Positions 26,308 to 61,395 of a stretch of 64,000 bases of DNA are shown in pieces. The position numbers and the translations under genes are program-made. Within the stretch, counting starts at the first letter, position 1; the number at the start of each line of letters is the position of its first letter. The DNA is from Squalus acanthias. Lineage: Eukaryota. The stretch lies in NCBI GenBank assembly GCA_030390025.1, contig CM059443.1, forward strand, positions 68,076,001-68,140,000, written 5' to 3'. The notes beneath the pieces were generated by a model. That model was not told the DNA's origin, ran no database searches, and was given only the letters and a program-made list of their open reading frames with translations.

Positions 26308-26957
26308 AGAGCAGTCACTGCAGTTTGTGTGTCTGCTTTTAAATGTTGTTCTGAGGCTCCCGTGAGATCAGTTCTCAACCCTGGGCAGCTTCCTCTCTGA
26401 TCTCCTGGGGAGAGCAGGTGCTCTGTGTAATGTTGGCCTCCTCAGGACGCCTCAAATCAGTTGTCGCTAAAACATAAACACTATCGGGGGACAGACCCCA
26501 AGAGCTCAAGTTCCTTCCTCAGTGACATTTATTTCTGAGAAACTTGGGGCGGGGGGGGGGGGGGGAGAGTGAAGGTCCCAGGCCCGCAGGGCAGGGCTGG
26601 AATATGTGCGAAGTCAAGACAAGATGGGGCCTCACTTGGGTTTAAAAGCCTGTAGATTGTGTAAGTGAGGAGTTTGAGATGGTGGAGAGGAATCAGTTAG
26701 AGGAGAAGACCGTGCGATGTGTTTTGATTTTAACGCAGGAAGGAGGACTGTGTAGAACAAGCGCAAGATAAACGAGAGGGGAAAGTTAGAGGAGCCCAGA
26801 CCTTGAAAGTATCGTAGAGACAGGAGGAGTTGAGAGAATGATTGCTGTAGATTGGAGAGGGGGGTGACCATCAGCTTTGCACACGGCCCATTACTGTGCT
26901 GTGAGTAATGGAGACTGCAGAAGCAGCATGTTTATTTTACTGCTTATTTCTTATCAG

Positions 26958-27557
26958 AAAAATTCCTCGTCCTCCATCTACTCGGTATACACAATGAAGA
27001 ACGGAAAGCTCAGTGACCAGCACGACTTCTTTCCGCGCAGGAACTCGACAATACAAAGACCCAGCCCTGATTTGGCGCAGTTGAACGAGAGCCATGATCG
27101 GCACACAGAGCGCTACTTCAGGGACTGGTTCTCAAAGCCCTTGGATCTGCATGGACTAATCCTGCCGTACCTCAGCAGCGCGCACGCCCAGCTCTGGAGG
27201 CAGTGTTACTTGCGCTGGATCCCCGAGGCGCAGATCACCAATGGAGGATTCATCAGCGCCTTTCACCAGATCTCATTACTGGCGGACGACATCGAAACTC
27301 TCCAGCAGCGTCTTCGGCAGTACCGGAGCGACCCCTTCCTGTCAGGCTCCCCTGAGCCCGGCAATTGCAGGATGTATTTCCGGGCCAAAGATTTCAGTGA
27401 AGCACCTGGGTCGCCTGACTGTTTCTCCTCGTCTTTTCCCTTCTCTCCCGTTGGGAACCTCTGTCGACGAAGCATTCTGGGAACGCCGCTAAGCAAATTC
27501 CTGCTAACCGGTGCCAAAACCTGGCCTTCCACAGAAACCCTGGCCAACGAAGATTGA
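26958..27557 (+). CDS. MTMR10: MTMR10 exon 16, terminal coding exon
   Basis: tatcag|AAA...; ends SSSFPFSPVGNLCRRSILGTPLSKFLLTGAKTWPSTETLANED*, closely matching the human C-terminus. Confidence 0.96.
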   Translation, partial: KNSSSSIYSVYTMKNGKLSDQHDFFPRRNSTIQRPSPDLAQLNESHDRHTERYFRDWFSKPLDLHGLILPYLSSAHAQLWRQCYLRWIPEAQITNGGFISAFHQISLLADDIETLQQRLRQYRSDPFLSGSPEPGNCRMYFRAKDFSEAPGSPDCFSSSFPFSPVGNLCRRSILGTPLSKFLLTGAKTWPSTETLANED

Positions 27558-33420: not shown

Positions 33421-34507
33421 TAGCCTTAAATTCCTCTGCTCTTCCCCAGCACCGAGACTACTTCCATTTACAGTATCATCACTGCTGTTTTTAATCAAAA
33501 TACATCATCTCATACTTGCATCTAATTCCATCTGCCACTTTTTAAGCCCATTCACCCTCTTATAAATATCACTTTGCAGCTTCCTGATGCTGTTGCATTT
33601 TCTAATGTTGATATTCCAAAGTCTTAAATTGGAAGATTTTTTTTTAGGCAGTTTGATGGCAGGAGCACGAGTGAGTTCAGGAATGTTCAGTAAATGACGA
33701 GGCCAGCAGCGATTTATTTCATTCTTTGATTCTGTGCTGGCTCAGCAGCAACCCCCGCAGAGCATAACATGTTCCTGCCGGTGAGTGAAGGAGCTCCCTG
33801 GGCTACATCGGATATCGCACACAGCCATCACTGGTGGGGTGGGTGAGGCAGGGGCAGGTGAGTGGGCGTTTCTGGGGAATATGGACTGTTCCACTACCTC
33901 CTCGTCAGCTGTGAGCTTCATCGTCCTGTCCGTACCGCAGGGTCAGCAGGATTGTGAGCTGTGGCTGATTTCCCCTGGCTTGAATCCAAGAGCACTGAGG
34001 TTAATCGTGGCCTCCTGGTCTGTAGCTCACAGTGCACCACAGTGGGTCGTCCTTTACCCACTGCCCTCTGGGGTAGGTGCTGTACGTGGCCCGGTGCTCC
34101 CGCTATGGACATTCAATCCCTCCTGAATTGGTACACCGATAACTGCAGGGAGTGAAATTGAGGAGAGACGGGGAGTTTCTGAACCACACTGACTGCTCCC
34201 TCCTGCTCGGAGCCCTCTGCCAACTAATCCTGAGCCCAGTATTATCCGCTTCAGGCTCGACTGAACAGTTCTTGATACTCAATTTGATTTATGGAGCAAC
34301 CATTTGCAAAACTGTATCTGACTTGTAAAGCTCAAAGCAACACAGCAATCCTAACAGTTAGATCTCACTCGATGTAGACAGCAGCTTCCCAAGAGCGTTC
34401 TGCCGCAGGTACGGGGGAGTGCAGGGTGCGTCCAGGAAAGGGGGGGGTCGCAGGCAGGTCCAGGTTACAGGGGGGAGTCCGGGGGATGAGCTGTCCTCTC
34501 ACTGGGA

Positions 34508-34645
34508 TTAGCTGAGCCGGTGACTCCGTGCTCCGACCGCACTGACGTGGCAAACCTCGGCATCGGCCCCAAGTCGCCGCAGCTGATCCAGCCACACCGT
34601 CTGCTTGTGGGAGAGTCGGTCGCTCGGACCTTTCACTTCTACCAG
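34508..34645 (-). CDS. FAN1: FAN1 coding exon 13 (VRR_NUC, VEVKG; stop codon)
   Basis: [45 protein letters not shown] vs human LVEVKGPNDRLSHKQMIWL...AVGAKSQSLS*. Confidence 0.96.
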
Positions 34646-35109
34646 CTGGAAACCAAAGAGAAAAATAAAATACAGGTAAGGAACGTTTAAAGCAAAGAGA
34701 TCACTTCAGGTGTGACGGCAATACAGACATAAATATCAGGAAGAGATTGTGTTAAAAGAACATTCGACATTCAGGCAGCGCAGTGTGCAAGGATGTGCAA
34801 TAGGGTGACTCGCACTCCTCCCCCCCCCACAGGACAGCCACACTGTGTGTTTGGGCGGGTGTAAGATATCACAATACTGAGTGAGCAGGAACTGAGGACC
34901 ACTGGATCTCACCCTTTAGCTGAGAGCTGCTCAGTCTGGGATATTCTTACATGAATGGAAATTAGCACAGCAGAGAAAAACAATCAAAATTCTGAATCAG
35001 TGACTAGTGACTGCAGGCCAGTGATTGTGGGATGACCAGGCCCCTGATATTCTGCCAGTCTCGGTACACACACCCGTTGTAAGATTGCCTCAGACTCGCT
35101 GTCGCTCAC

Positions 35110-35238
35110 CTTGTACTGGAGGCTGTGGCTGTTCCACACCACAAGATCAGGGAGCCCCCCACGGCAGTGCCTCAGGTTCTTGGCCAGAATCCTACAAACG
35201 CCACTCAGGAACAGACCACCAAGACAGCTCACCAGGCT
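35110..35238 (-). CDS. FAN1: FAN1 coding exon 12 (catalytic GLPDL)
   Basis: [37 protein letters not shown]; AG/GT ends. Confidence 0.95.
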
Positions 35239-35371
35239 CTGAAAACATCCCCACAAACACGTCAATTCAGGGCCAAAGGGACAACTTCACTACAAATCTG
35301 CTAATGACAGTCCTTTCAGTGAGGGGGAAATATTCATCCTGTCGCTGTGTAACACTGGGGTACAGTACTGA

Positions 35372-35875
35372 TCATAGAAACTTACAGCACAGGATGCCAT
35401 TCGGCCCATCTTGTCTGTGCCGGCCGACAAAGAGCTTTCCAGCCTAATCCCACTTTCCAGCACTTGGTCCGTAGCCTTGTAGGTTACGGCACTTCAAGCG
35501 CATATCCAAGTACTTCTTAAATGTGATGAGGGTTTCTGCCTCTACCACCCTTTCAGACAGTGAGTTCGAAACCCCCACCACCCTCTGGGTGAAATAATTT
35601 CTCCTCAAATCCCCTCTAAACCTCCTACCAATTACTTTAAATCTATGCCCCCTGGTTATCGACCCCTCTAAGGGAAATAGGTCCTTCCTATCCACTCTAT
35701 CTAGGCCCCTCATAATTTTATACACCTCAATTAGGTCTCCCCGCAGCCTCCTCTGTTCCAAAGAAAACAACCCCAGCCTATCCAATCTTTCCTCATTGCT
35801 AAAATTCCCCAGCCCAGGCAACACCCTCCTAAATCGCCTCCGCACCCTCTAGTGCAATCACATCCTTCCTGTAAA
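35372..35875 (-). mobile_element. CR1 3' end
   Basis: ERLDRLGLFSLEQRRLRGDLIEVYKIMRG... followed by a CR1 tail. Confidence 0.88.
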
Positions 35876-35989
35876 GGTACAGGTCTGTCACTGTGTAACA
35901 CTGGGTTACAGTACTGGTGGGGAACAGGTAGGTAGATGACTGGGTTACAGGTAGGCAGATTGGGGTACACTGGGGTAGAAGCTGTGTAC

Positions 35990-36184
35990 CTGGGCCTGCT
36001 GAAGAGAGCTGAAGATCTCCCAGTTGACTAACGCGGCTGCTGTGCCTCCGTGACTGTTCCACACATCAGCGATGAGTGTGTGGAGGGTTCCTGTGGGGGC
36101 GTCTCGCAGGAACTCCAGCCTTGATTCAATGGGCTCCCTCCGGTGCTGATAGAAACATTCAGTGTAGAGATCCAGAGGGCAAGC
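35990..36184 (-). CDS. FAN1: FAN1 coding exon 11
   Basis: ACPLDLYTECFYQHRREPIESRL...LVNWEIFSSLQQAQ. Confidence 0.94.
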
Positions 36185-36617: not shown

Positions 36618-36721
36618 CTGATACGGATTCCGGAAAACGTCCGGGATTCCAGGCAGGAACATGACTTCCCAGAAGAGAAGTCCGAATAGTGTTAAGAATG
36701 TGGCTCCTTCGCCGTGTATCC
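36618..36721 (-). CDS. FAN1: FAN1 coding exon 10
   Basis: [35 protein letters not shown]. Confidence 0.94.
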
Positions 36722-36805
36722 CTGGAACACAGATCGACAGATCACTGCACACAGTCCTCGCGCCTCAGCAACAATGAAAGTCAGTGGATTCGGTACGGTG
36801 ATTAC

Positions 36806-36959
36806 CCTGATTGAAGCCTTGCCGCTGGTAGTGGGCCAGAGAAACTTCCTCCACCGAACAGATCACCGTAGAGCGAGGCTCCCCCTCCCCCTCACTGCTG
36901 CCTTCCATCAGGAACATGGCATTGCCCATCCCCGGGCACGGTCTGCCCTTCACCGTCAC
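36806..36959 (-). CDS. FAN1: FAN1 coding exon 9
   Basis: VTVKGRPCPG...TVICSVEEVSLAHYQRQGFNQ. Confidence 0.94.
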
Positions 36960-37072
36960 CTAGAAAGAAAATTAAAACCAGAAATTAAAACCTCTTCAGC
37001 TGGGGCCTGGCTCCCAGGGCACCATTATCCTGAAATAATTTATATTAAAGGGTTAAGTAAGAGTCTCCTTTA

Positions 37073-37385
37073 TTGGCTCAGTGGGTAAAGGCCATGCACG
37101 GTGTGGGTGTGGGACTGAGCCCTGGTGAGCAGGAGAGCACTGCCCCAGTGTGGGACTGAGCCCTGGTGAGCAGGAGAGCACTGCCCCAGTGTGGGACTGA
37201 GCCCTGGTGAGCAGGAGAGCACCGCCTGGAGTGGGATCCCAGGTGATATCTCCGCCATGGGAGAGTTGGTACAATTAGCCCCAATCTCACTCAGCTGGGG
37301 AAAGGAAAGCAATCAGCCATGGTTCCAGCTCCTGATCACTGACCCCGCTGAGGAAGGCTCCTGTGAACAGACTGCCTGGGTGAGG
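37073..37385 (+). mobile_element. Old tRNA-headed SINE-like family copy containing a 41-bp triplication (37108-37228)
   Basis: A-box-like ggctcagtgggtaaa. The body is shared with degenerate copies near 13540, 15960, 18490, 52300(-) and 60110. Confidence 0.5.
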
Positions 37386-37753
37386 TGTCCAAGTGACTGG
37401 TGCTCGTGGTCAGATACCCAGCAGGCATCAGCACCTTCAGGAGAGGAGCGGGGTAAACTGGGAGGCCAATGCTCCACCAGGGCAGGGAGAGGGGTGGGTG
37501 CACTGCTGCTGTGTTGAAACAGCAGCCGCTAATGTCCCTGACAATCGATGGTGGGAGTTTGTCACTGTGCTTCACACATGGACCCAGTCAGGCCTGAGAC
37601 ACATTCATGGGAATAATGCCATCAATAAAAGGATTTAAATAAAAGAATCATCCACATCAGACTCTTAGAGAATGAAAGAATGTGATGTTTAGACTGGGGT
37701 GAATTATTCCATTGGCTGTGGGTCCCTGAGCTCCTGCCCTCAGCACCACTCAC

Positions 37754-37918
37754 ATGCGGCACATCTCCCACTCCCATCACTGGCAGATCCTGAAGAAGGT
37801 GGTGCCATTTCTTGCAGCTCGGGGAGTCGCGTATCCGCAGTGCCCGCTGGTGTAGCGCCAGGCGATGTCCCATCTGCACCTGCGCATCGTTCAGCCCTTC
37901 CCGCACACAGCGGATTGC
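37754..37918 (-). CDS. FAN1: FAN1 coding exon 8 (TPR)
   Basis: [38 protein letters not shown]. Confidence 0.94.
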
Positions 37919-38272
37919 CTGGAGTCCAAAGCCACATGAACAGCAATCAATTCTAACAGAACAATCTGAGGAGACGGTCAGTGAGTCCAAATCAACTTCC
38001 ACCGCCAGTTAAACCGTTACATCCACCGTGAACAATCCTCAACCAGGTTACCTGGACCTAGTTATTGATCAAACCTGATTTAATGTGCAGCAAAGTTGAT
38101 CAGGATCACAGAGCATTTGGTCGGACTCTGGTCCGATCCCCTGCGCTGGCTGTGACTGATTACCACAGTGCTGGGATCTGTCCCGTCACATCATCAACAC
38201 ACTGCAATACACAAGGACTTGGCAATGACATCACATTGAGCAGCAGCCACTAGCCCTCACGGTCAGCGGTAC

Positions 38273-38392
38273 CTGATCGGTCTGCTTCAGATGCTGCTGG
38301 AGATTCAGACTCAGCCGATCCCACCAGTGCCCGCGGCTCTCTGGACAATAGACGCTTTGCTCCAAAAGGCTTTGCAATTCCTCCACCGCCTC
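38273..38392 (-). CDS. FAN1: FAN1 coding exon 7 (TPR)
   Basis: [36 protein letters not shown]. Confidence 0.95.
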
Positions 38393-38613
38393 CTGAGAAT
38401 GAGATTCGAAGACAGAGTTCAACATCTAACGCCAACAGCTCCAATCCTCTCATCTAAATTCGTCTCAACCAAACAAAACCAACTTGCACCCCGCCCCCCC
38501 CACCGTGCCGGATCTCCCCCCACGCTGATCACCAGATCACTTTAACTGGCACTGGATCACCGAACCCCGCACTGGATCACTGCGCTTTTATGTAACTTTG
38601 CATTTTTTTTTAC

Positions 38614-38722
38614 CTGGTACATGTGCAGCCGCTGTAAAATTTCCACCCCACGGAATCGGATGCGCGTGTAGACCCAGCCCGCAGTGAAACATCGCAGGTA
38701 CACTGGGAGCTCCTGATAGAAC
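38614..38722 (-). CDS. FAN1: FAN1 coding exon 6
   Basis: [33 protein letters not shown]. Confidence 0.95.
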
Positions 38723-38992
38723 CTAAAATTAACCAATATTAGTCACCCGTTGTAAAATGAAAAAGAAACATACTGGTCTGGTTATGAATGTTTACAGTGT
38801 GAATGGGTGGTGCCAGGGATCAGACTTTACCCTCACAGCCCTGGACTCAAACCCATCTGTCTGCTCGCTGTTACAGACCTTGGCCAGTCTCAACCTGTCC
38901 CTGCGGGACCAGAGTCCACAGCACAAACAGGCACAGGTGTGAGAACGCTCACATTACTCGCTGGGGCAGTAGGCAGCATTAATGAGGAACAT

Positions 38993-39093
38993 TGTTGGGA
39001 CAGTGAAGAGGGAGCTTCACTCTGTGTCAAACCTGTGCTGTACCTGCCCTGGGAGTGTTTGATGGGACAGTGTAGAGGGAGCTTTACTCTGTA
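38993..39093. repeat. Short copy of a dispersed tandem repeat
   Basis: gggacagtg(a/t)agagggagctt(c/t)actctgt occurs twice. Confidence 0.6.
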
Positions 39094-39634
39094 CAAAAGC
39101 TCATATCCAATCTTGTAAAACTGCCTATCGCCACCTACTGAACGCCCACCGCCGCTGAAATCCTCATTCATTCCTTCAGCTTCCTCAACTCCATCCAACA
39201 CAAACTCTAACTTGTCCAAACCTCTGCTGCTTGCATGTGATCATGCACGAAGTCCACCCTCCCTCCCTCTGCAACGTCCCCCAGCCTCACACACCAGCGC
39301 ACACGCTCCACTCTTTCAACTCTGGCCTCCCCTTCGTTCACTCCACTTTGGGATGCACAACCTTCAGCTGTGTTAGCTCAATATTCTGGAATGTGCTCCT
39401 TAAATGCCTCACTACTTCTCGCCCCACCTTCAAAAGTCTCCTCAATACCCAACTTTGACATGTCATTGGTCACCTCTCCAGTTCTTTTATTACTGGGACG
39501 TTTATTACATTAAAGACTCCATATTAAGGCAAGGTGCTGTTATTCAGGTCCGTGCTCCCGTGGACCCACTTCTCCCATCACCCCATCTGAGCTTCTCTTG
39601 GGAGACAGGAACGGGTGTTCCCCAGTTCCCTGAA

Positions 39635-40765
39635 ATGAGTAGACTAGGCCTATATTCTCTGGAGTTTAGAAGAATGAGAGGTGATCTCATTGAAACATAC
39701 AAAATTCTTACAGGGCTTGACAGGGTAGATGCAGGGAGGATGTTTCCCCTGGCTAGGGAGTTTAGAACCAGGGGTCACTGTCTCAGGATAAGGGGTCGGT
39801 CATTTAGGACTGAGAGGAGGAGAAATTTCTTCACTCAGAAGGTGGTGAATCTTTGGAATTCTCTACCCCAGAGGGCTGTGGGGGCTCAGTCATTGAGTAT
39901 ATTCAAGACAGAGATCACTAGATTTTTGAATATTAAGGGAATCAAGGGATATGGGGATAGTGCAGGAAAGTGGAGATGAGGTAGAAGATCATACGAACAT
40001 ATGAATTAGGAGCAGGAGTAGGCCACTCGGCCCTTCGAGCCTGCTCCGCCATTCAATAAGATCATGGCTGATCCGATTACTTCACATTCCCGCCTACCCC
40101 CGATAACTTTTTACCCCCTTGCTTACCAAGAATCTATCTACCTCTGCCTTAAAAATATTCAAAGACTCTGCTTCCACCGCCCTCTGAGGAAGAGAGTTTC
40201 AAAGACTCACGACCCTCTGTGAGAAAAAATTTCTCCTCATCTCTGTCTTAAATGGGCGACCCCTTATTTTTAAACAGTGACCCCTAGTTCTAGATTCTCC
40301 CACAAGAGGAAACATCCTCTCCACATCCACCCTGTCCAGACCCCTCAGGATCTTATACGTTTCAATCAAGTCACCTCTTACTCTTCTAAACTCCAGCGGA
40401 TACAAGCCTAGCCTGTCCAACCTTTCCTAATAAGACAACCCACCCATTCCTGGTATTAGTCTAGTAAACCTTCTCTGAACTGCTTCCAACACATTTACAT
40501 CCTTCCTTAAATAAGGAGACCAATACTGTACACAGTACTCCAGATGTGGTCTCATCAATGCCCTGTATAACTTTTGTATTCAATTTCCCTTGCAATAAAT
40601 GATAACATTCTATTAGCTTTCCTAATTACTTGCTGTACCTACATAGTAACTTTTTGCGATTCATTCACTAGGACACACAGATCCCTCTGCATCAGCCATT
40701 GAATGGCGGAGCAGGCTCGAAGGGCCAAATGGCCTACTCCTGCTCCTATTTCTTATGTTCTTATG
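39635..40765. mobile_element. Nested CR1 pair: a + strand 3' end (39635-39990, tail 40691-40765) interrupted by a - strand CR1 3' end (39992-40690)
   Basis: Both encode RLGLY.LEFRR.RGDLIETYKIL... on opposite strands; atca repeats flank the inner copy. Confidence 0.88.
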
Positions 40766-40997
40766 TCTGTTCCTGCACTCGCTGTCACCATGCTCCCAGT
40801 TATGGGATTAACAAAGTGCCTCTAATTACAAAGCTGCACACGGCCCTTCAATGGGTATTCATTTGCCCAAAGGGGCTGGGGGGGGGGGGGCATTGCTGCC
40901 TGGAGGGGTTCCTTTCCCCATTAAACACTGTTACCACCCGACACAGAGGGTTGTGAGAGTGACAGACCCGAGTGTGCTGTACACTCCCTCACATTAC

Positions 40998-41129
40998 CTG
41001 ATGTCACTGCTGTTCTCCAGCGAGCTCCACCTCTCTCTGGCAGTTTGATAAATCTGAAGAGCGTCGCTCCAGGTCCCATTGGTCATCGCACTTCCCACCT
41101 CAGCCAGAGAATGCACGGCTGCATTGTAC
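40998..41129 (-). CDS. FAN1: FAN1 coding exon 5
   Basis: YNAAVHSLAEVGSAMTNGTWSDALQIYQTARERWSSLENSSDI; phases fit both neighbouring exons. Confidence 0.92.
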
Positions 41130-41795: not shown

Positions 41796-42029
41796 CTGAG
41801 CAGGTCATCCCTGTGCCGGAAGATTTTTGTCTCCCTCAGCACGGTGTAACTGGGGAAGACGACGTGTCCCATGTTGACCATGAGCACCGTGGACAGCTGA
41901 CTCTGACCAGCACTGGCCGCCTCCTCTTCATCCGTCGACTCTATCAGAGAGAAAAGTAGCAACACCCGCGAGAACACGGCACGGGCTGGTGCAGCGACTC
42001 TCACACACCGTCCGACCATCTCCTTCACC
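41796..42029 (-). CDS. FAN1: FAN1 coding exon 4
   Basis: RAVFSRVLLLFSLIESTDEEEAASAGQSQLSTVLMVNMG...IFRHRDDLLR. Confidence 0.95.
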
Positions 42030-42469: not shown

Positions 42470-42668
42470 CTGTTGAGGATGGCGGAGCCGGGGCTCGATG
42501 GGTTCCGGTCACAGCTGAAGATCGATTTCTGCTTGGCCAAACGGAGCAAGGACCCCAGGATCTCTGCCCTTTGACCCCGGGGTTGCAGGTGGAAGGTTTT
42601 AGCCAATAGTTTGAGCTCAGGGGCCGACAGCAGGTCCAGGGCCTCGGAGACGTCGCAGAGCTCCGACT
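42470..42668 (-). CDS. FAN1: FAN1 coding exon 3 (SAP domain)
   Basis: SELCDVSEALDLLSAPELKLLAKTFHL...AILNR. The donor AG|GTCCTT is weak. Confidence 0.88.
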
Positions 42669-43296: not shown

Positions 43297-43437
43297 CTGT
43301 CTGTAACAAGCCAGTGAGGCTCAGCTCCTCGATGGTGGGGGTCAGATCCAGGCCAATCTCAGCGTAATCCAGTCTGCTCACTTTCAGCCAATTCAGCTTC
43401 CGTTGAAAAAGTCTCACGTAGAGCTTCTGGGCAGCAG
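43297..43437 (-). CDS. FAN1: FAN1 coding exon 2
   Basis: [46 protein letters not shown]. Confidence 0.95.
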
Positions 43438-45034: not shown

Positions 45035-47607
45035 TCTTTTTATTCGTTCCTGGGATGTGGGCGTCGCTGGCAAGGTCAGCATTTATTGCCCATCCCTAAT
45101 TGCCCTTGAGAAGGTGGTGGAGAGCCGCCTTCTTGAACTGCTGCAGTCCCTGTGGTGAAGGTACTCCCACAGTGCTGTTAGGGAGGGAGTTCCAGGATTT
45201 TGACCCAGCGATGATGAAGAAATGGTGATATACTTCTATGTCAGGATGGTGTGTGGCTTGGAGTGGAACTTGCACCTGCTGCCCTTGTCCTTTTGGGTGG
45301 TAGAGGTCACGGGTTTGGGAGGTGCTGCCGAAGAAGTCTTGGCGAGTTGCTGCAGTGCATCTTGTAGACGGTACACACTGCAGACACATTGCGCCAGTGG
45401 TGGAGGGACTGAATGCTTAAGGTGGTGGATGGGGTGCCGATGAAGCGGGCTGCTTTGTCTTGGATGGTGGCGAGCTTCTTGAGTGTTGTTGGAGCTGCAC
45501 TCATCCAGGCAAGTGGAGAGTATTCCATCACACTCCTTACTTGTGCCTTGTAGATGGTGGAAAGGCTTTGGGGAGTCAGGTGAGACACTCGCTGCAGAAT
45601 ACCTAGCCTCTGACCTGCTCTTGTTGCCACAGTATTTATGTGGCTGGTCCAGTTAAGTTTCTGGTCAATAGTGACCCCATGGATATTGATGGTGGGGGAT
45701 TCGGCGATGGTAATGTCGTTGAATGTCATGGGCAGGTGGTTAGACTCTCACTTGTTGGAGATAGTGGATGCATTGGTTGTCATCTTCCAAAATTCTATAG
45801 ATTATGGAACAGTTCCTGCAGATTGGAGGGTGGTAAATGTAACCCCACTATTTAAAAAAGGGAGAGAGAAAACAGGGAACTACAGACTGGTTAGCCTAAC
45901 ATCAGGAGTAGGGAAAATGCTAGAGTCTATTATAAAGGATGTGATAACAGGACACTTAGAAAATATCAACGGGATTAGACAAAGTCAACATGGATTTATG
46001 AAAGGGAAATCGTGTTTGACAAACCTACTGAGTTTTTTGAGATTGTAACTGGTAGAATAGATAAGGGAGAACCAGTGGATGTGGTGTATTTGGATTTTCA
46101 GAAGGCCTTTGATAAAGTCTCATATAAGAGGTTAGTGTGCAAAATTAAAGCACATGGGATTGGGGGTAATATACTGGCATGGATTGAAAATTGGTTAACA
46201 GACAAGAAACAGAGAGTAGGAATAAATGGGTCTTTTTCGGGGTGGCAGGCGGTGACTAGTGGGGTACCGCAGGGATCAATGCTTGGGCTCCAGCTATTCA
46301 CAATATATATCAATGATTTGGATGAGAGAACCAAATATAATATTTCCAAGTTTGCTGACGACACAAAACTAAATGGGATTGAGTTGTGAGGAGGATGCAA
46401 AGAGGCTTCAAGGCGACTTAGACAAGTTGAGTGAGTGGGCAAATACATGGCAGATGCAGTATAACGTGGATAAATGTGAAGTTATCCACTTCAGTAGGAA
46501 AACAGAAGAGTATTATTTAAATGGTGAAAGATTGGGAAATGCTGATGTACAAAGGGACCTGGATGTCCTTGTACACCAGTCACTGAAAGCAAACATGCAG
46601 GTGCAGCAAGCAGTTAGGAAGGCAAATGGTATGTTGGCCTTCATTGCAAGAGGATTTGAGTACAGGAGCAAGGATGTCTTACTACAGTTGTACAGGGCCT
46701 TGGTGAGACCACACCTGGAGTAGTGTGTGCAGTTTTGGTCTCCTTACCTAAGAAAGGATATACTTGCCATAGAGGGAGTGCAGCGAAGATTCACTAGACT
46801 GATTTCTGGGATGGCAGGACTGTCGTATGAGGAGAGATTGGGTCAACTAGGCCTATATTCACTAGAGTTTAGAATGAGAGGGGATCTCATTGAAATGTAT
46901 AAAATTCTGACAGGGCTAGACAGACTGCAGGGAGGATGCTTCCCCTGGCTGGGGGGTCTAGAACAAGGGGTCACAGTCTCAGGATACGGGGTAGGACATT
47001 TAGGACTGAGATGAGGAGAAATTTCTTCACTCAGAGGGTGGTGAACCTGTGGAATTCTCTACCACAGAAGGCTGTGGAGGCTCAGTCATTGAATATATTT
47101 AAGAAGGAGATTGATAGATTTCTAGACACAAAAGGCATCAAGGGGTATGGGGAGATAGCAGATCAGCCATGATCATATTGAATGGCGAAGCAGGTTCAAA
47201 GGGCCGAATGGGCTACTCCTGCTCCTATTTTTTCATGGTTTTTTTTCTATAGTCATTGCCTGGCACTTGTGTGGCACAAATGTTACCTGCCACTTCACAA
47301 CCCAAGCCTGAACGTCATCCAGGTCTTGCTGCATGCGGGCATGGACTGCTTCATTATCTGAGTTGCGGCGAATGGCACTGAGCACTGTGCAGTCATCAGC
47401 AAACATCCCCACTTTTGACCTTATGTTGGGGGGGAAGGTTATTGATGGAGCAGCTGAGGATGGCTGGGCCTAGGACACTGCCCTGAGGAACTCCTACAGT
47501 GATGTCTTGGGGCTGAGATGATTAAACTTCAACCACCACATCCATCTTCCTTTGTGCTAGGTATGATTCCAGCCAGTGGAGAGTTTTCCCCGATTCCCAT
47601 TGACCTC
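45035..47607 (-). mobile_element. Second-family LINE 3' part, interrupted by a + strand CR1
   Basis: Same family as 21666-24740 (TFNDITIAESPTINIHGVTIDQKLNW). Resumes at ~47248 and ends ~20 nt from the FAN1 first donor. Confidence 0.85.
45766..47247 (+). mobile_element. 5'-truncated CR1 nested in the second-family LINE
   Basis: Frameshifted RT fragments (DWRVVNVTPLFKKG...FADD...) and a tail; atagt at both junctions. Confidence 0.88.
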
Positions 47608-47627
47608 AGGGTGTCCAGCGGGGATAC

Positions 47628-48078
47628 CTGAGAGTTGCTGGAATATTCGAATCCAGTCGTTGTCTTCTTCATTGAAGAGTTGTTTATCTTCACTCTCCAG
47701 CACCGTGTCCAGCACCAGCAGAAAGTTCACCAGGTAGTAGGGCGCTGGGACCGTGTCCCCGCTGGCGGCCCCCGCCCGGCCCACCGGCCCCTCCCCGGCC
47801 CCCGAGCCCCGGTCACTCAGTGCAGCCGCCCCCGGGCCTGGGTTTGGCTCCGGGCCGTCCCCGGGGCCCGCTCCCCCGCCACAGCCTCTCGCTCTCCGAT
47901 ACCGCCTGGAGAGTTTGGAGAGCGGGCGGCCCGCGGGCCCGCAGCTCCCGCCCCCCTCACCCGGCGCCCCGGGGCCGCTGTTTCCCATAGGCTCCCCCGG
48001 GTTCGGTGCTGCGGCGCCCCGCTTTCTGGCTCGGAGAGAGAGGCGGCATGGCGGGCTCCTCCTGTTCGGGGAAGACAT
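47628..48078 (-). CDS. FAN1: FAN1 coding exon 1 (short N-terminus, no UBZ)
   Basis: ATG at 48078: MSSPNRRSPPCRLSLRARKR...LSKLSRRY...PYYLVNFLLVLDTVLESEDKQLFNEE...FQQLS, then a phase-1 donor G|gtatcc. The start codon is inferred. Confidence 0.82.
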
Positions 48079-48109
48079 CGAGAGGAGGGCTTGGCTCTTC
48101 CACCAGCCG

Positions 48110-49160
48110 ACCAATCACAGCCGCCCCTTCCACCGGCCCGCCAATCATAGCCGCCCCTTTCACCAGCCGGCCATTCACAGCCGCCCCTTCCACCGGCCCC
48201 GCCAATCACAGCCGCCCCTTCCACCGGCCCGCCAATCATAGCCGCCCCTTTCACCAGCCGGCCAATCACAGCCACCCCTTTCACCGGCCGGCCAATCACT
48301 GCCGCCCCTTCCACCGGCCCGCCAATCACAGCCGCCCCTTCCACCGGCCCCGCCAATCACAGCCGCCCCTTCCACCGGCCCGCCAATCATAGCCGCCCCT
48401 TTCACCAGCCGGCCAATCACAGCCACCCCTTTCACCGGCCGGCCAATCACTGCCGCCCCTTCCACCGGCCAGTCAATCATAGCCGCCCCTTTCACCGGCC
48501 GGCCAATCACTGCCGCCCCTTCCACCGGCCAGTCAATCACAGCCACCCCTTTCACCGGCCGGCCAATCACTGCCGCCCCTTCCACCGGCCAGTCAATCAT
48601 AGCCGCCCCTTTCACCGGCCGGCCATTAACAGCCGCCCCTTCCACCGGCCCCGCCAATCACAGCCGCCCCTTCCACCGGCCGGCCAATCGCAGCCGCCCT
48701 TTCCACCGGCCCCGCCAATCACAGCCGCACCTTCCACCGGCCGGCCATTCACAGCCGCCCTTTCCACCGGCCCCGCCAATCACAGCCACACCTTCCACCG
48801 GCCCGCCAATCATAGCCGCCCCTTTCACCAGCCGGCCATTCACAGCCGCCCCTTCCACCGGCCCCGCCAATCACAGCCGCCCCTTCCACCGGCCGGCCAA
48901 TCACAGCCGCCCCTTCCACCGGCCGGCCAATCACAGCTGCCCTTCCACCGGCCCCGCCAATCACAGCCGCTCCTTCCACCGGCCGGCTAATCACAGTCGC
49001 CCCTTCCAAAGGCCCGCCAATCACAGCCGCCTCACCCACCGCCCTGTGAATCAGTCTCCCCTTCCACCAGCCGGCCAATCACAGCTGCCCCTTCCACCGG
49101 CCCCGCCAATCACAGCTGCCCCTTCCACCGGCCCCGCCAATCACAGTCGCCCCTTCCACT
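48110..49160. promoter_or_regulatory. Tandem array (~34 x 30-31 bp) of CCAAT box + GC box directly upstream of FAN1
   Basis: Unit ccaatcacagccgccccttccaccggcccg. The repeat is certain; the regulatory role is inferred. Confidence 0.7.
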
Positions 49161-53702: not shown

Positions 53703-53986
53703 GATCTGTATCGCTCCAGCAGCCAGCTCGAGTCACACTAAACGGCGTCCATCAAACAATGCAGCAGGGGTTATTCCTGGATCCAGAGGGTGTGAGTGCC
53801 GCCCGGGAGCAGACTGCAAATGCACCCTCACCGTGGCAGGGTCAGGCCAGGCAGGGCATTAAAGTACAGCAAAGATAAAATGTTTCTAACCCAGTAATAC
53901 AGACAATCAGCAAAACAAACAGAGTCGTGCTCCTGCCACGCTGTTCTCTGCTCAGTCTCCGATGTTACACCGATTCCTTTACTCAC

Positions 53987-54097
53987 CGGTTTGGGTGTGA
54001 AGTGGAAGTTAGAGAGAGCGTCCAGTTTGAGGAAAAGCGAATCCATCATCTTTTGGATCTCCGCGTGCTGCAGGTTTTCCTCCACTTCAGACTTTTG
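53987..54097 (-). CDS. MPHOSPH10: MPHOSPH10 exon 8
   Basis: [37 protein letters not shown]. Confidence 0.95.
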
Positions 54098-54396
54098 CTG
54101 CAACAATAAGGGTTTAATTAAAAACCTGACACAATGCCCCACTGACAGTCACCCGGCAGCTCTGCGACCTCACGTACCCGTACGGCCGCGGCCTGTAATC
54201 TCACACCACTACAAATCATTTACCAGTTATAACTTAGGCCTTCCTAAAATCTTATTACCGTGCAAGGCATCACTGCTGAGCCAGATCCTGGTCTGATGTC
54301 CTGTGTCTAGCCTGGGGCGCTGAAACTAGCTGTAGCACTTCCACTCCGATCAATCCCTTGCTTAAAACCCAGAAGCTGATTACCCGAGATTATTAC

Positions 54397-54534
54397 CTGA
54401 GTTTGCTTTAGATATTCCTGCTCATACACTTCAGCTAGACTCAGCTTGCTTTTCTCATGGTCCAAGGTGAGTCGTTTTTTGTATTCAAAGGTCTCCTCTT
54501 TTGGCTTTTCCTTGCGCACAACATCGTCCCAGGC
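54397..54534 (-). CDS. MPHOSPH10: MPHOSPH10 exon 7
   Basis: [43 protein letters not shown]. Confidence 0.96.
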
Positions 54535-56429
54535 CTGTAACACAGAGCAGACGATGCTTACCCATCAACAACTGATTAATATGTGCCCGTTAGTGGCTGA
54601 AATCCACAACATTTATAAAACAGAGAATCAGACCCACTCCACAGATTCCAACATGGCTGTGGACAAGTCCAAAGGAACTTCCTGGAAAATGCCACTGTTT
54701 AAAGCAGTGTAAACATATTGATACTCAACATTCACCAATCCTGACAAACAGAAAATGCTAGACATGCACATCAGGTCCATCAGCACTGGAAAGAGAAGAG
54801 GCAGGGAACGTTTGGGATGGGGATCCCTTGTCACAGCTCCAGCTCCCACCTGGACCGCTCACTGGCCTTTTCACTTTCAGTTGCTGACTGACCTGCTGTG
54901 CGTTCCAGGATTTTCTGTTATTTCAGATTGAGGGAAAGATATTTTATCCCAGGAGGGGACATTCAGCCCTCGTCACCTGAATCAAAGTTAGGCCTCTCCC
55001 AGGAACTGATTTTCCACAGTCCCACTTTCCTTCTTTCTTCTCCTATTTTTTCCATACTGTAATCGCTGTAATTAATCTAGTGCCGATCACGTGCAAAGCA
55101 TTCACCTTCCAATAACGGTGAAAAACTTCCTCCACCCTGGCACACCGTACTGGTGCTTATCTCAAGATCACGGCTTTGTCTTCAATCCACTGACCGATGG
55201 AAAGCATTGATTTATGTTTGCCTCGTCTATCCCGTTTATCATTTTGAATAGCTCTATAAAAAAAAAACCCCACTGATCTTCTCTGTTCTTGCATACTAAG
55301 TGGAGCGATACATTCTCAATCTAATTACATGAATACACCTCCCAGATCCCAGGGGTGAGAAAGATCTATTTTTAATCAGGGATGGGCAGTAATTCTAGCA
55401 CACACTTTAATATAAATTTTACATATGCATGAATCATTAATCCCACTCCAACAAGAGTGCTTATTTTGAACAGCCCTAGCTCTCCATCTTTCAAACTCCA
55501 CGCTACTGCTTTCCATCATTTACAATATCGTCATTTTTCAAAACATTTTTCCTTTTGTGTTTTCCACACTTTTTTCTCCTTTAGTTTAAGAATCTATTTT
55601 CCTGCTGCTTTTACATTTGGCTTAAATGGAAGCACATTGTATCTGCACTTGGCAAGCACAAGCTGCCCATGCAATTGGGCACCGATGCACAGCTGGAATA
55701 TTTCAATCAATCAGATGTTAGACATACGAGGCTACGTGGCACAAAGCCGTTAGGTTTGGAGATTTTCCTGGGTAACAGTTATTTCACAGCTTCTTGCTGT
55801 CGGCCTTTAAAACATCACCACCTAGTGGCAGTTCCTGTCTACAATGCTCCTGATAAACTGGCCTGTGTGGGTCAGAGGTGGAGGTGTCTGGGCAGGTTTT
55901 ACAGTCTTCACTCTCTCACCGATTTTCACAGCAATTCAAAGATTCGGTTGAGAGTGTCTGCGTAAAATCAGATTTTCTGTACAAATTGTGGCTGGCTCCT
56001 ACAGCCTGCTTTATATCAATCGGCTGTGGCTGCGTTTATTACACATCAGCATGTAAGGGAAATTACTACCAAGGATTTTTTTTTTCCTAACCTGTCTGTT
56101 TCCCTGCAATTTTATGAACTCCCACTAAGAAGATAGTGACAAAGAGGTGGTGGACAGACCCCAGACTCAGCCAATGTGGCTCTGGTCAATCGACCAGGAG
56201 GTTATACCCCCCTCCAACACAAAGTGAAAACCCAAACTAAATGTTCGTTGAAACCTTGACTCTGTTGATCTTCCAGCTTAGACTCAGGTACTGCACCTAC
56301 TAGACTAACACTTAAAACATGAGACCATCTACAAATGACACTTAATTCGATTGCAAGATGGTGCACTTTCTCTCCTTCCACCTATTTTAAAACTCTTGAC
56401 CCTTTACAGACAAGCTGCTCCACGAGTTA

Positions 56430-57485
56430 ACGACAGTGGAAAATGAATTCAACCCGGAGAAGTGTGAGAATGCATTTGGGGAGGGCTAACAAGACAAGGG
56501 AATACACAATAAACGGTAGGATGCTGAGAAGTGTAGAGGAAAAGAGGGACCTTGGAGTGCATGTCCACAGATCCCTGAAGGTAGCAGGACAGGTAGATAA
56601 GGTGGTTAAGAAGGCATACGGGATACTTTCCTTTATTAGCCAAAACATAGAATATAAGAGCAGGAAGGTTATGCTTGAACTGTATAAAACACTAGTTAGG
56701 CCGCAGCTAGAATACTGCATACAGTTCTGGTCATCACATTACAGGAAGGATGTGATTGCACTAGAGAAGGTACAGAGGCGATTTACGAGGATGTTGCCAG
56801 GACTGGAGAATTTTAGCTACGAGGAAGGATTGAATAGGCTGGAACAACAGAAAACGCTGGAAAAACTCAGCAGGCCAGGCAACATCCGTGGAGAGAGAAA
56901 CAGAGTTAACGTTTCAGGTCGAAGATCTTTCGTCAGAAGGTCTTCGACCTGAAACGTTAACTCTGTTTCTCTCTCCACGGATGTTGCCTGGCCTGCTGAG
57001 TTTTTCCAGCGTTTTCTGTTGTTGTTTCAATTTTCCAGCATCCGCAGTATTTTGCTATCTGAATAGGCTGGGTTGCTTTCTTTGGAAGAGAGGAGGCTGA
57101 GGGGAGATTTAATTGAGATGTATAAAATTATGAGGGGCCTAGCTAGAGTGGATAGGAAGGACCTATTTCCCTTAGCAGAGAGGTCAATAACCAGGGGGCA
57201 TAGATTCAAAGTAATTGGTAGAAGGATTAGAGGAAAGTTGAGGAGAACTTTTTTCACCCAGAGGGTGGTGGGGGTCTGGAAATCACTGCCTGAAAGGGTG
57301 GTAGAGGCAGAAACCCTCATCACATTTAAAAAGTACTTGGATATGCACTAGAAGTGCTGTAACCTACAAGGCTATGGACCAAAGGCGGGAAAGCGGGATT
57401 AGGCTGGATAACTCATTTTCGGCCGGCACAGACACAATGAGCCGAATGGCCTCCTTCTGTGCCGTAAATTTCTATGATTCTATGA
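56430..57485 (+). mobile_element. CR1 3' portion hosting a palindromic insert
   Basis: RPQLEYCIQFWSSHYRKDV...RGDLIEMYKIMRG followed by a CR1 tail. Confidence 0.88.
56843..57059. mobile_element. Palindromic Penelope-like insertion with 83-bp perfect arms
   Basis: Arms at 56843-56925 and 56941-57023. 12-bp TSD tgaataggctgg (56831-56842, 57060-57071). Confidence 0.82.
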
Positions 57486-57502
57486 CAAAGCCTTGCACTG
57501 AC

Positions 57503-57570
57503 CTGGTCTTTAATCCTCTGGATAATGACATCCTCCAGTTGAAGTGTTGTCTCCTCAGTGATGACAGGAG
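57503..57570 (-). CDS. MPHOSPH10: MPHOSPH10 exon 6
   Basis: PVITEETTLQLEDVIIQRIKDQ. Confidence 0.94.
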
Positions 57571-57754
57571 CTGAGAACAGAGATCAGAAATCAGCACAAA
57601 CTCAATACAAAGCAAACTATAACACAGTTTAATGCTTTGCTAATAAACGCACTGTCCCGTACACCCAGACATACCAAAGACGTACTGCTGTCTGAATGAG
57701 GGGTCAGTGCCCCCCCGTCCCCACTGCAAGGCGAGTGTGTGGAGCGAGACTCAC

Positions 57755-57896
57755 CCTTCCTGACTGCATGGTCAAACAGCAGGTCCTCCTCCAACAGGCT
57801 GTTCTCGGGCCGTTTCTGGCTACTGACCTCTCCCAGAAGCTGCCAAGGCTTCTGCTCCAAGGCAGATTTCTCCAGCTCCTGGATTTGTGCGTTCAA
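57755..57896 (-). CDS. MPHOSPH10: MPHOSPH10 exon 5
   Basis: LNAQIQELEKSALEQKPWQLLGEVSSQKRPENSLLEEDLLFDHAVRK. Confidence 0.95.
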
Positions 57897-58045
57897 CTAT
57901 AGGGAACAAAACACGATGCAGGTTACCTGCGGAATTGCGTTACATAGAAATTACAGGCTGCACACCGGCCATTCAGCCCAACCAGCCCGTGTTAGTGTTT
58001 ATCCTCATGCTCTGTGCCCGAATTAATTGTAATTCCAATAATCAC

Positions 58046-58214
58046 CCTTTCTTGGCGTTTTTCAAAGGCTGATTTTGCCTCTTCCGGCTTCTTTCCTCCT
58101 ATCACATCGGCCAATTCCTCCCCCTCACTGTCATCCGACAGGACAAAGCTAACTTTCTTATGGGCCCCCTTGGCCTCTCGACCTCTCTCGGACTCCTCCA
58201 TCTTCTCCTGGTCT
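58046..58214 (-). CDS. MPHOSPH10: MPHOSPH10 exon 4
   Basis: HKKVSFVLSDDSEGEE...KSAFEKRQER. Confidence 0.92.
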
Positions 58215-59004
58215 CTGGGTCACAGAAAGGAAACCAAATTAATGCAACACAGAAATACAGGATCTACATTCTAGTTCGTCAAAAGAATATACCAGATCAT
58301 CTATTTTCAGCTTCTATTTATATTATTCCTTGCCAATTAAGCGTGATACCACAAATCAAATTCTTACAGAACACCAGGTGGGGTGTGTGACACATACCAA
58401 TTGCTGGAGCAGTACAATTCTTTCAACAGCTTTGGCAGGACTGCATTGGCAATGGTTCGGCGTACCTACTTCCTGCAAACCAGGTGGCCCAGACTCCATC
58501 CCATCGCTGGTCTCAGTCAGTGTATTCGTTGGGCTGCTACACCTGGTCTCAGTGCACTGAATAATTGTACACCAATAAAGAGGTTCAGGGCTCCAGGTAC
58601 ATGTCATTAAAAGCCAGCGCAGATGTAAAAGCAGAACAGTTAAGGCCAGTGGGATGCTGGGCTTCATCACGAGGTACAGAATATAAAACCAAGGCAGTAC
58701 TATTGCAGACACACAGCGCCAGGCAGTCCTCATCTGGAATATGGTGTCTGGAGAGTGTCACCAGGAGAAAGGGAATGGGTAAACTTGGATTATATTCCCA
58801 GGCGATGAGGAGGGTAAGGGGTGGCCTGATTGAGGCGCAGCCCACTGTCAAATAGTCAGCTGGCACCCACTGTCTCGCCCAAGACAGGAACGGTCACTTG
58901 GATGGGGTATCAGAGGGGTGTCAGCAACTCTCGGGCTGGACCCAGCGCCTGTGGCTTAGGAACGGGGGGGGAGGAAATGGAGAAAGAAACTTCAGAAAAC
59001 ATAC

Positions 59005-59168
59005 TCATCCATTTCTTCCATATCCTCGTCCTCCTCAAATTCTTCTGGCTCTGGTTCCCCTTCTGCCTCATCACTTTCGTTCTCCTCGTCGCCATCTTCT
59101 ATCGCAACTTCCTCACCCTCGACCGGGTCGAAGAAATCCTTGTACTGCAGGTTCCTGGAACTCTTAGT
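59005..59168 (-). CDS. MPHOSPH10: MPHOSPH10 exon 3
   Basis: TKSSRNLQYKDFFDPVE followed by an acidic tract. Confidence 0.93.
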
Positions 59169-60486
59169 CTGACAAACAACAACAAAATTCAAATACGTAA
59201 AAACATTAATACAGAGCTCCTTATACTCATCTCATGTCACAGAATATCACTGGGCCCACCCACCCTCCATCACTTATTCCCATAGAAGGGACGGGCAACC
59301 AACCTGTTCTCAGATCTCTACCAATTAGCTCTACAGGCTGCGACTAGTGGGTGTGCAAGAGAGCTTAGGAACTTCCAAGGGTTTTGCTGCAGTTTAACCA
59401 GCTGAATTCGCACACCTTATGAACGCTATCTGGAGCCTCGTGGGAAGAATCCTGATCCTAGCAACAGCTCAATTCCTCCAGGTCCCAAAAGTAATCTAGA
59501 CTGGCTGGTCAATCAAGCCCTGGAGTACTGTGGGCCTACAGGCTTCAGATTACAGAGACCGGGGGGATTGACTTAGTTCCCCACCAGCATGTCAACTTGG
59601 AGCCACCTTGGTCCTATGCAGACCCCTGCGGACCTCTCCCCTCCATCCCAGCAGGATAGTCACTAACTGGCAAGCAAAGGTCTCTGCCCTTTGCTGCTGG
59701 ATAACAGGGACTAGGATCTCTCTGCGAGCATAAGGTGTGCGAGTGCATTCCACCGTGTGGGCCACAGCCCGAGCACACACCGAACCCCAGGGAACGGTGG
59801 TCCCACCAGCGAAAGATGCAGAGTTTCAGCAGCAGCTGCCTCTCTAAGCCAGTTATGGGGGTCACTGGGCCCTGGATATAAGAGTGTGTGCTCTCGTACC
59901 CAGCCTCCAGGTAATGCACCCCAGCTTTCAGCTTCCTCATCAACAATATGGTAGAAATCTGACTTCAGTGTGAATAAAGGAAGACAAACAAATGAGAAGC
60001 AGAGATAGCTGCAGGAGGAGAGAGAATAATGTTTTATCTGTGAGCAACATCACGGTGGATCAGCTCGTGGTATTTCATTAAAAGATCTTCACTTCAACTC
60101 CCCCGAGGGGTCAGCAGATAAATGCGTAGCTTGGTGTGGTGCTGAGCTATACAGTCCAGTGGCCCAACCCCCAGTCTATGTTGAGCTAGCCAATCTCAGC
60201 TGGGAGAATGGCGAGGGGGCAGCATTTCCCCAGCAGCCCTGGGCTCGGGAGGAGAAAACAAATCAACCAGGGCCTCTGATCCTGGTCACAATTCAGTGAG
60301 TGTTTGTACAACGGATGAAGACTGTGCTGCCTCCACAATCGAATAGCACGCAGACTCTCAATGCCTAAAATAAAGAATGGCCATTAAATCAAGGTACCAG
60401 AGATTGACGGGCATCCATGAAACCATATCACAGCAGGGGTCAGCACTGGCAGGGAGCAGGGCTGAATACTGGTGGAAGATCATTAC

Positions 60487-61135
60487 CTTTTGCTTAGTCT
60501 CTGTTTTCATGACAAGTTCTTCATCTTCAGAAGGAATATCTTCAAAATAATCTATTTCATCATCATCATCCTTCTGCTTCCCTTCTTCCTTCTCAGCTTG
60601 CTCCAAAAAAGCTTCCATTTCTGAAAGTCTAAAAAATTTATCGTCTAGGTCGGAGCTGGTGGCGAATCTAGGGTTCCTTCTCTGGGGTTTAGTCCTTTTC
60701 TCAAGTTCATCAATGTCAAAGTTGAGATCAGAGTCTTCATCACTAAGCTTTTCAGTTTGAATATTTTTTCCTTTGACTTTCTGATTTTTTAACTCTTCTT
60801 CTTCCTCCTCCTCTTCACTGCTCTCCCTTATCTCAGCATCTTCTTCTATAGACTCATCGTTTTCAAACTCTTGCTCAGGAGCCTCGATCTCCACCTCTTC
60901 TTCAATCAGCCTGATAAGAGTGTCTCGAAGTAGAGAAGCCACTGTAACTTTGAAGTAGTTTAAGACTGAATTGTTCTGCAGTTCGATCTCTTGCCAGATC
61001 TGCTCCTCATCAAACTGTTCTATGACCAGCTCCTTCAGCGCGCTTCCAGCAACAGCATCTGCCTCCTGCTCCTTCTGTAAATCATACAGCTCCTTAGTGA
61101 GAGCAGTGAAGTCTGATGCCAATCCATCCTGTACA
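60487..61135 (-). CDS. MPHOSPH10: MPHOSPH10 exon 2
   Basis: VQDGLASDFTALTKELYD...FDEEQIWQEIELQN...DDKFFRLSEMEAFLE...IDYFEDI. Confidence 0.95.
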
Positions 61136-61395
61136 CTAGGAGAGGGAGAGAGGAACAGTGTTAATCTCATGGCTCCTTCCACAATCCCACCCTGTAACAC
61201 AGCAGATTAGGATCCGTTTATTACAAATTCCACATCCCCACCCCCCAATTTTCCCCAAAAGGTGTTGAGTCCTGTGGTTCTACAGGGAAGTCTGTTTGCC
61301 TCAGGCCCACGCCAGACACTGCACCCCGCTCAGTATAACTCAGGTCCACATGGGGCTGTTCACTGGATTCTCGCTGCCGGTGAGAGAGCTCGGGC

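Follow-up and report, generated by a model that had tools for sequence, protein, structure and literature searches.

An intact FAN1 nuclease gene of Squalus acanthias with a short N-terminus lacking PIP, UBZ4, SPYF and KEN motifs, as in the other cartilaginous fishes examined

Can a vertebrate FAN1 be an intact nuclease gene and have none of the N-terminal motifs by which the protein is known to be recruited and regulated, or does such a gene model reflect an incomplete first exon? This question is raised by a 64-kb stretch of the Squalus acanthias genome (hereafter the window), in which the original prediction had recognized a FAN1 gene with an unusually short first coding exon and had proposed a natural vertebrate FAN1 uncoupled from FANCD2 recruitment. 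The motifs concerned have distinct functions in the published accounts: the PIP box is non-canonical, lies immediately ahead of the UBZ (I30/F34) and acts jointly with it to bind ubiquitylated PCNA and restrain forks (PMC5648898); SPYF (MIP box, 126-129) vies with MSH3 for MLH1, the nuclease being described as a separate second layer of CAG stabilisation (PMC8424649); and KEN is reported as the FAN1 degron (PMC7990447). The reading that we favor, at a probability of about 0.8, is that this shark has a single intact FAN1 nuclease gene whose exon 1 is without PIP, UBZ4, SPYF and KEN, likely by shrinkage of the exon in the ancestor of cartilaginous fishes, and whose enzyme is predicted to reach lesions by its own SAP domain and not by ubiquitylated FANCD2, ubiquitylated PCNA or MLH1.

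The gene lies on the minus strand of the window in 13 coding exons (Table 1), which were delimited by comparison with Pristiophorus japonicus P0001, the orthologue of known species that lies closest; exon 4 is 93% identical to this protein. GT-AG borders flank each of the 12 introns, and splicing yields a frame of 756 aa with a single terminal stop, which bears out both the length and the exon 1 of 150 codons that had been proposed. This exon of 451 nt, comprising the 150 codons and a phase-1 GT donor, has a GC content of 69% and adjoins a 1-kb minisatellite; its ATG is at 48078, with an in-frame stop 12 codons further 5' (stop-to-stop ORF 47557-48114). The last 46 residues of exon 1 align to full-length human FAN1 (PDB 9gy0 chain residues 369-415), and the N-terminus ahead of the HTH domain measures 112 aa in the window, whereas the median in bony vertebrates is 393 aa.

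The rest of the protein is conventional in its layout. The domain order HTH, SAP, TPR and VRR_NUC is present: the closest orthologue matches Pfam PF21315, PF21169, PF21170 and PF08774, each window exon aligns to it in sequence, and VRR_NUC family matches were found at the window locus itself. The PD and EVK catalytic columns of the window are identical to those of all 34 other alignment rows, in agreement with the intact PD-ExK residues noted at the outset. Searches of the 3.7-Gb assembly with exon 4 and with VRR_NUC each matched the window locus only, so that no second FAN1 copy was found and one locus was detected. This single copy is situated between MPHOSPH10 and a myotubularin-related gene, an order that we take to be the usual one in vertebrates; the downstream 3-PAP neighbor is presumably MTMR10, by synteny. 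By its domain order, catalytic residues and locus the window gene is a FAN1, and its activity as a 5'-flap endonuclease and 5'-3' exonuclease is predicted.

Table 1. Positions of FAN1, its motifs and its neighbors in the window.
Feature	Position	Strand	Basis or remark
FAN1 coding exon 1, 150 codons	47628..48078	-	N-terminus short, of low complexity, no PIP, UBZ4, SPYF or KEN; followed by start of HTH; likely-RNA contigs over 47808-48070
FAN1 basic N-terminal motif, residues 6-20	48019..48063	-	alignment to Pristiophorus start
FAN1 MIM-region remnant GRPLSKLSRRY, residues 50-60	47899..47931	-	L159 and KLSR core kept; I150/L152/L155 positions are G/A/P
FAN1 coding exon 2 (HTH)	43297..43437	-	alignment to orthologue
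FAN1 coding exon 3 (SAP)	42470..42668	-	PCNA-contact T483 and H485 kept; R507 position is K at 42526-42528
FAN1 coding exon 4	41796..42029	-	genome search, likely-RNA contigs, alignment
FAN1 coding exons 5-10 (TPR region and link to nuclease domain)	36618..41129	-	alignment to orthologue
FAN1 coding exons 5-10, singly	40998-41129, 38614-38722, 38273-38392, 37754-37918, 36806-36959, 36618-36721	-	
FAN1 coding exons 11-13 (VRR_NUC, PD and EVK, stop codon)	34508..36184	-	singly 35990-36184, 35110-35238, 34508-34645
MPHOSPH10 exons, upstream neighbor of FAN1, same strand	53831..61206	-	Pfam Mpp10 (three frames examined)
Myotubularin-related 3-PAP exon, downstream convergent neighbor of FAN1	26868..27554	+	Pfam 3-PAP, E 7e-44
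30-bp minisatellite, ~35 copies, 26 CCAAT boxes	48097..49159	.	starts 19 bp upstream of FAN1 ATG

No SPYF, PIP-like or KEN motif occurs in exon 1 of the window gene, and this exon contains three cysteines and no histidine, so that a CCHC finger is impossible and the RAD18-like UBZ4 finger is absent from it; the missing finger and the missing SPYF were thus correctly predicted. The absence of a UBZ-like exon upstream was likewise upheld by searches for a lost or hidden segment. The best tblastn match of five bony-vertebrate FAN1 N-termini against the 64-kb window had an E of 0.13, and a 39-aa PIP+UBZ query against the genome gave at best an E of 8.9 on another contig, in a search that scores the best candidates only and missed the UBZ fingers of other genes. 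As a positive control, a 40-aa bony-vertebrate FAN1 query located exon 1 in the genome at an E of 0.002.

Contigs of likely RNA origin bear on the same point; they come from four sequencing runs of the 13 listed, and their RNA nature is guessed, though they skip introns. One of them spans 47809-48070 without gaps and with two differences, including the basic start through KLSRRY, and others connect FAN1 exons 3 and 4 over their intron. Most of the upstream minisatellite is without cover in the four runs, and the contigs cannot mark a start; neither the exon 1-2 junction nor the 5' end of FAN1, nor a full-length transcript, was among the matches listed. These contigs also carry a FAN1 3' UTR of more than 1.5 kb beyond the stop (window 33000-34645), toward the convergent myotubularin-related gene.

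An incomplete model, in which the UBZ segment is encoded by GC-rich sequence that the assembly lacks, by an exon far upstream or by a rare isoform, would draw on this missing 5' end, on the GC content and adjoining minisatellite of exon 1, and on the shark models P0009 and P0122, which begin within the HTH domain and thus indicate an exon that is hard to annotate. It is nonetheless extremely improbable, because the 17 chondrichthyan N-termini that we compared come from separate assemblies and share one anatomy, Met followed by the basic motif, because an RNA-like contig crosses the shortened stretch and an in-frame stop lies 5' of the ATG, and because the genome search found no UBZ segment with its control working. 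The missing motifs are neither an assembly nor an annotation gap, and with no UBZ segment or second copy emerging from the searches, the evidence supports a vertebrate FAN1 that naturally has no UBZ, PIP or SPYF.

The minisatellite that precedes the ATG has its own structure, with CCAAT boxes spaced 30, 60 or 90 bp, a GC-box-like flank, 69% GC and a CpG o/e of 0.93; we take the boxes and flank to represent NF-Y and Sp1 consensus. One exact 28-mer of this array has a single occurrence in the genome, and the array possibly represents a tandemly amplified promoter element, judging from its composition. Another minisatellite, of 24 bp in 29.5 copies with 99% match, lies close to the MPHOSPH10 5' end (window 61399-62105), and both neighboring genes, FAN1 and MPHOSPH10, therefore have an array near their start. 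The window holds 38 tandem-repeat rows, and the link between such repeats and the FAN1 form, which the original prediction had called speculative, gains no support here. It also contains long LINE reverse-transcriptase frames at 1829-3934 (-) and 21836-24424 (+), the latter coming after an endonuclease frame.

The chondrichthyan comparison comprised 17 N-termini: the window, nine other sharks, five named batoids, one skate-like protein and Callorhinchus milii. The 218-aa fragment P0006, the models without N-terminus (P0009, P0122), the redundant isoforms P0121, P0125 and P0126 and the shorter Callorhinchus models P0193, P0340 and P0341 were left out. PIP-like, UBZ, SPYF and KEN motifs were each found in none of the 17, and KLSR in 16. 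The bony-vertebrate set, in which birds dominate, contained the 159 of 171 FAN1 proteins whose N-terminus reaches 300 aa or more; UBZ was present in 153 of these, SPYF in 156, a PIP-like motif in 136, KEN in 135 and KLSR in 158, and when the length filter was lifted the counts for UBZ and SPYF were 157/171 and 162/171. Every elasmobranch FAN1 returned by the search has the short form, and Callorhinchus has the same one. The alignment of chondrichthyan orthologues therefore confirmed the short FAN1 but showed a trait common to all cartilaginous fishes examined, and not one particular to this genome.

UBZ and SPYF occur together in the hagfish Myxine, the amphioxus Branchiostoma and the acorn worm Ptychodera, and UBZ also in the sea anemone Nematostella and the sponge Oscarella. 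Their joint presence in hagfish and amphioxus implies that the short chondrichthyan FAN1 is derived, and since the chimaera has it too, this form would predate the split between holocephalans and elasmobranchs, which took place ~400 million years ago. Among the 15 named outgroup and 159 bony proteins tested, the joint loss of all motifs is confined to chondrichthyans.

Loss of the UBZ finger by itself is more widespread. The FAN1 models of two lampreys, Lethenteron reissneri (P0202) and Lampetra fluviatilis (P0355), are, like those of sharks, vertebrate FAN1 proteins without the finger; unlike those of sharks, they retain a PIP-like motif, SPYF, the MIM core L155xxxL159, KEN, R507 and a long N-terminus. 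Because hagfish has the UBZ, the lamprey sequences point to a second, independent loss within vertebrates. An annelid and four molluscs (P0205, P0207, P0209, P0213, P0219) also have no UBZ and retain the PIP-like motif, and the loss may be general among lophotrochozoans. The UBZ-less FAN1 of bacteria and fission yeast, mentioned in the original prediction, thus has company in lampreys and these five lophotrochozoans, and UBZ loss recurs in animals. Our literature search found no report of a UBZ-less FAN1 in cartilaginous fishes (PMC11061109, which it brought up, deals with fungi), although supplementary alignment figures outside the search might hold a chondrichthyan row; the class-wide form without PIP, UBZ4, SPYF and KEN accordingly appears to be new as a description, UBZ-less FAN1 itself being already known elsewhere.

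The pieces that survive in the chondrichthyan N-terminus keep the order of bony FAN1: the basic start comes first, KLSR second and the HTH domain last. Between the LSL motif and L159, chondrichthyans have 33-68 aa and the listed outgroup rows 138-179 aa, a pattern that fits internal shrinkage of one exon. When the starts were scored against a bony-vertebrate N-terminal profile, 8 of the 17 chondrichthyan sequences were bettered by at most 1 of 200 shuffles; the Pristiophorus score was reached by 0 of 200 shuffles and that of the window start by 86 of 200, and the window start aligns to that of Pristiophorus. The basic N-terminus that had been foreseen is present at residues 6-20, and we infer that it is the counterpart of the human NLS at residues 11-25 (PMC8424649).

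Coding exon 1 of the ancestral chondrichthyan FAN1 likely shrank through the loss or replacement of two segments. The first, of ~100 aa, would have extended from the basic start to KLSR and held PIP, UBZ and SPYF, and the second would have extended from KLSR to the HTH domain and held KEN. The whole N-terminus may instead have been replaced: the start of the window protein does not itself score against the bony profile, and fewer than half of the chondrichthyan starts do. In several chondrichthyans the stretch that links KLSR to the HTH domain has grown into tandem peptide repeats, as coding minisatellites within FAN1; the proteins concerned are P0007, P0008, P0010, P0011, P0012 and P0339, and the N-terminus reaches 280 aa in Stegostoma.

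A linker of such unconstrained length (43 to 280 aa), in many cases built of repeated peptides, might also be expected of a gene under relaxed selection and heading for loss in cartilaginous fishes, with SNM1A-type redundancy, as described in PMC4803051, compensating for it. Such decay is very improbable given the intact frame over 13 exons, the unchanged catalytic residues, the close similarity of exon 4 to that of Pristiophorus, the spliced RNA-like contigs and the class-wide retention of the core.

The one motif of this region that persists is the remnant GRPLSKLSRRY, which had been compared with the second MLH1-interacting motif of human FAN1 (MIM). The resemblance and the change from L to P hold (L155 position, residue 52); the working motif probably does not. 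Human MIM contacts the S3 site of MLH1 through I150, L152, L155 and L159, and its affinity drops from 0.06 uM to 33 uM when the beta-strand is removed (PMC13473659; PMC8324060). In the window the corresponding residues are G, A, P and L, so that three of the four anchors are missing and only L159 and its basic flank are retained. Across 15 other chondrichthyan species none has I, V or L at the I150 position or L at the L152 position, and 8 have L or I at L155; all 162 bony-vertebrate matches carry L at L155. With the anchors I150, L152 and frequently L155 lost, SKLSRR, although retained, probably no longer works as an MLH1 motif. The pattern [KR]LSR[RK] persists in chondrichthyans and is present in amphioxus as well, and its retention likely serves a function other than MLH1 binding, for which USP7 binding and nuclear import are candidates. 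The human 158-KLSRK-162 peptide is described as the sole KxxxK candidate binding USP7, and the K158A/K162A change left USP7 binding not abolished (PMC13086964). Some weak MLH1 binding by shark FAN1 may persist, since 8 of the 15 species still have L or I at L155 and since MLH1 in this genome retains its pocket leucines (L585, L636, L639, L650, L653).

At MLH1 position 629, this genome has Gly in place of E (L016:1501-1674, an MLH1 exon; one genome only). In the human structure E629 forms a hydrogen bond with R145 of FAN1. Co-evolution of this site with FAN1 cannot be claimed from a single genome.

A further contact lies outside the N-terminus: R507 of FAN1 bridges PCNA D232 and is reported to be required for PCNA activation on CAG extrusions (PMC12078661). 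The R507 column was placed using wild-type and R507H PDB chains. Of 160 bony proteins, 157 have R here (the other 11 of the 171 were dropped where the anchor motif was missing), and of the 16 elasmobranch rows that cover the segment 13 have Q, 2 (window included) K and 1 R. R507 is retained in Callorhinchus and Mobula, and elsewhere hagfish has Q, a notothenioid K and a bat P; with these deviations, loss of R507 as a chondrichthyan hallmark would be too clean a statement, and we rejected it. The change is suggestive and non-diagnostic, and T483 and H485 are retained in the window.

These observations also bear on whether shark FAN1 might be rewired and not uncoupled, its KLSR remnant still engaging MLH1 at the S3 site and its SAP loops still engaging PCNA, with repeat protection largely kept. 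The near-universal KLSR, the L or I at L155 in about half of the species, the conserved MLH1 pocket, PCNA D232 and FAN1 T483/H485, and the conservative K at 507 in this species beside the R of Callorhinchus and Mobula would all suit such a protein. We consider it unlikely, as a minimal MIM without its beta-strand is far weaker (PMC13473659), three of four anchors are gone here, the R507 position is Q in most elasmobranchs, and MLH1 binding in cells is reported to require SPYF (PMC8424649).

The partners themselves are in place, as this genome has a FANCD2 (29 exon matches) that retains K561, a PCNA that retains D232, and MLH1. Their persistence indicates that the change lies in FAN1, and not in the loss of partner genes. 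For the favored reading, of an enzyme that depends on its own SAP domain, the functional consequences are a carry-over from mammals. UBZ-mutant FAN1 of mouse and human rescues crosslink sensitivity and retains fast SAP-dependent recruitment, with only the slow FANCD2-dependent phase lost, and the purpose of the UBZ-FANCD2 link is described there as unexplained (PMC4803051). By extension from the human and mouse mutants, crosslink repair in sharks would remain via the fast SAP-dependent route, and slow FANCD2-dependent foci, stalled-fork restraint and competition with MSH3 for MLH1 would be lost; the protein would give up ubiquitin-guided recruitment, MLH1 sequestration and the KEN degron. The uncoupling from FANCD2 recruitment that was originally put forward is a prediction of the same kind, and non-ubiquitylated FANCD2, which is reported to load FAN1 on chromatin without the UBZ (PMC7990447), may still provide a UBZ-independent route.

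A bolder version, which we hold only tentatively and regard as rather doubtful, is that FAN1 acts in cartilaginous fishes as an autonomous nuclease, separated from every known regulator (ubiquitylated FANCD2, ubiquitylated PCNA, both MLH1 sites, the Cdh1 degron and, in the majority of sharks and rays, the R507 latch), with the MLH1 drift from E629 to G matching. If this were true, a vertebrate class of long-lived animals would be without the brake that FAN1 and MLH1 put on repeat expansion, and KLSR, the only motif on which selection still acts, would point to a different and more basic partner, for instance USP7.

Several characterized FAN1 proteins can be compared with the shark gene. The core of HTH, SAP, TPR and VRR_NUC, as represented by the Pristiophorus orthologue, aligns end to end with human FAN1 (1017 aa; PDB 9GY0, 9CL7, 4RI8 and others; P0001 against 9gy0, E 3e-258), and the PD-ExK residues, the basic N-terminal motif and KLSR are shared with it; unlike the human protein, the window FAN1 is without PIP, UBZ4, SPYF and KEN, has the MIM residues I150, L152 and L155 replaced and has K at R507, and it falls outside the regulatory type that UBZ, PIP, MIP and MIM define in mammals. 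As a UBZ-less nuclease core it resembles fission-yeast Fan1 and bacterial FAN1 (Pseudomonas-type, PDB 4R89, 5Y7G), and S. pombe Fan1 is reported to repair crosslinks without a UBZ (PMC7990447, PMC4803051). It differs from both in that the UBZ-less state of sharks is a secondary loss inside vertebrates, and whereas S. pombe is described as without Fanconi machinery (PMC7990447), the shark genome keeps FANCD2 with K561. The engineered mammalian mutants C44A/C47A, I30A/F34A, Y128A/F129A, L155A/L159A and delta73-349 each remove one handle that is missing in the shark; unlike these single mutants, shark FAN1 is without all of the handles together, as the natural state of a whole class.

The significance of this natural state is tempered by the fact that accessory-motif loss within lineages is common, that UBZ dispensability was already known from mutants and that the function of shark FAN1 is predicted. 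Even so, a class that dropped these FAN1 motifs yet kept FANCD2 K561, MLH1 and PCNA shows that the motifs are dispensable over evolutionary time. Shark FAN1 would offer a natural nuclease-only form with which the contribution of the nuclease to repeat stabilisation could be told apart from that of MLH1 sequestration, an issue of current interest for modifiers of Huntington's disease, and the lampreys, in which UBZ is lost and SPYF kept, would complete a natural series.
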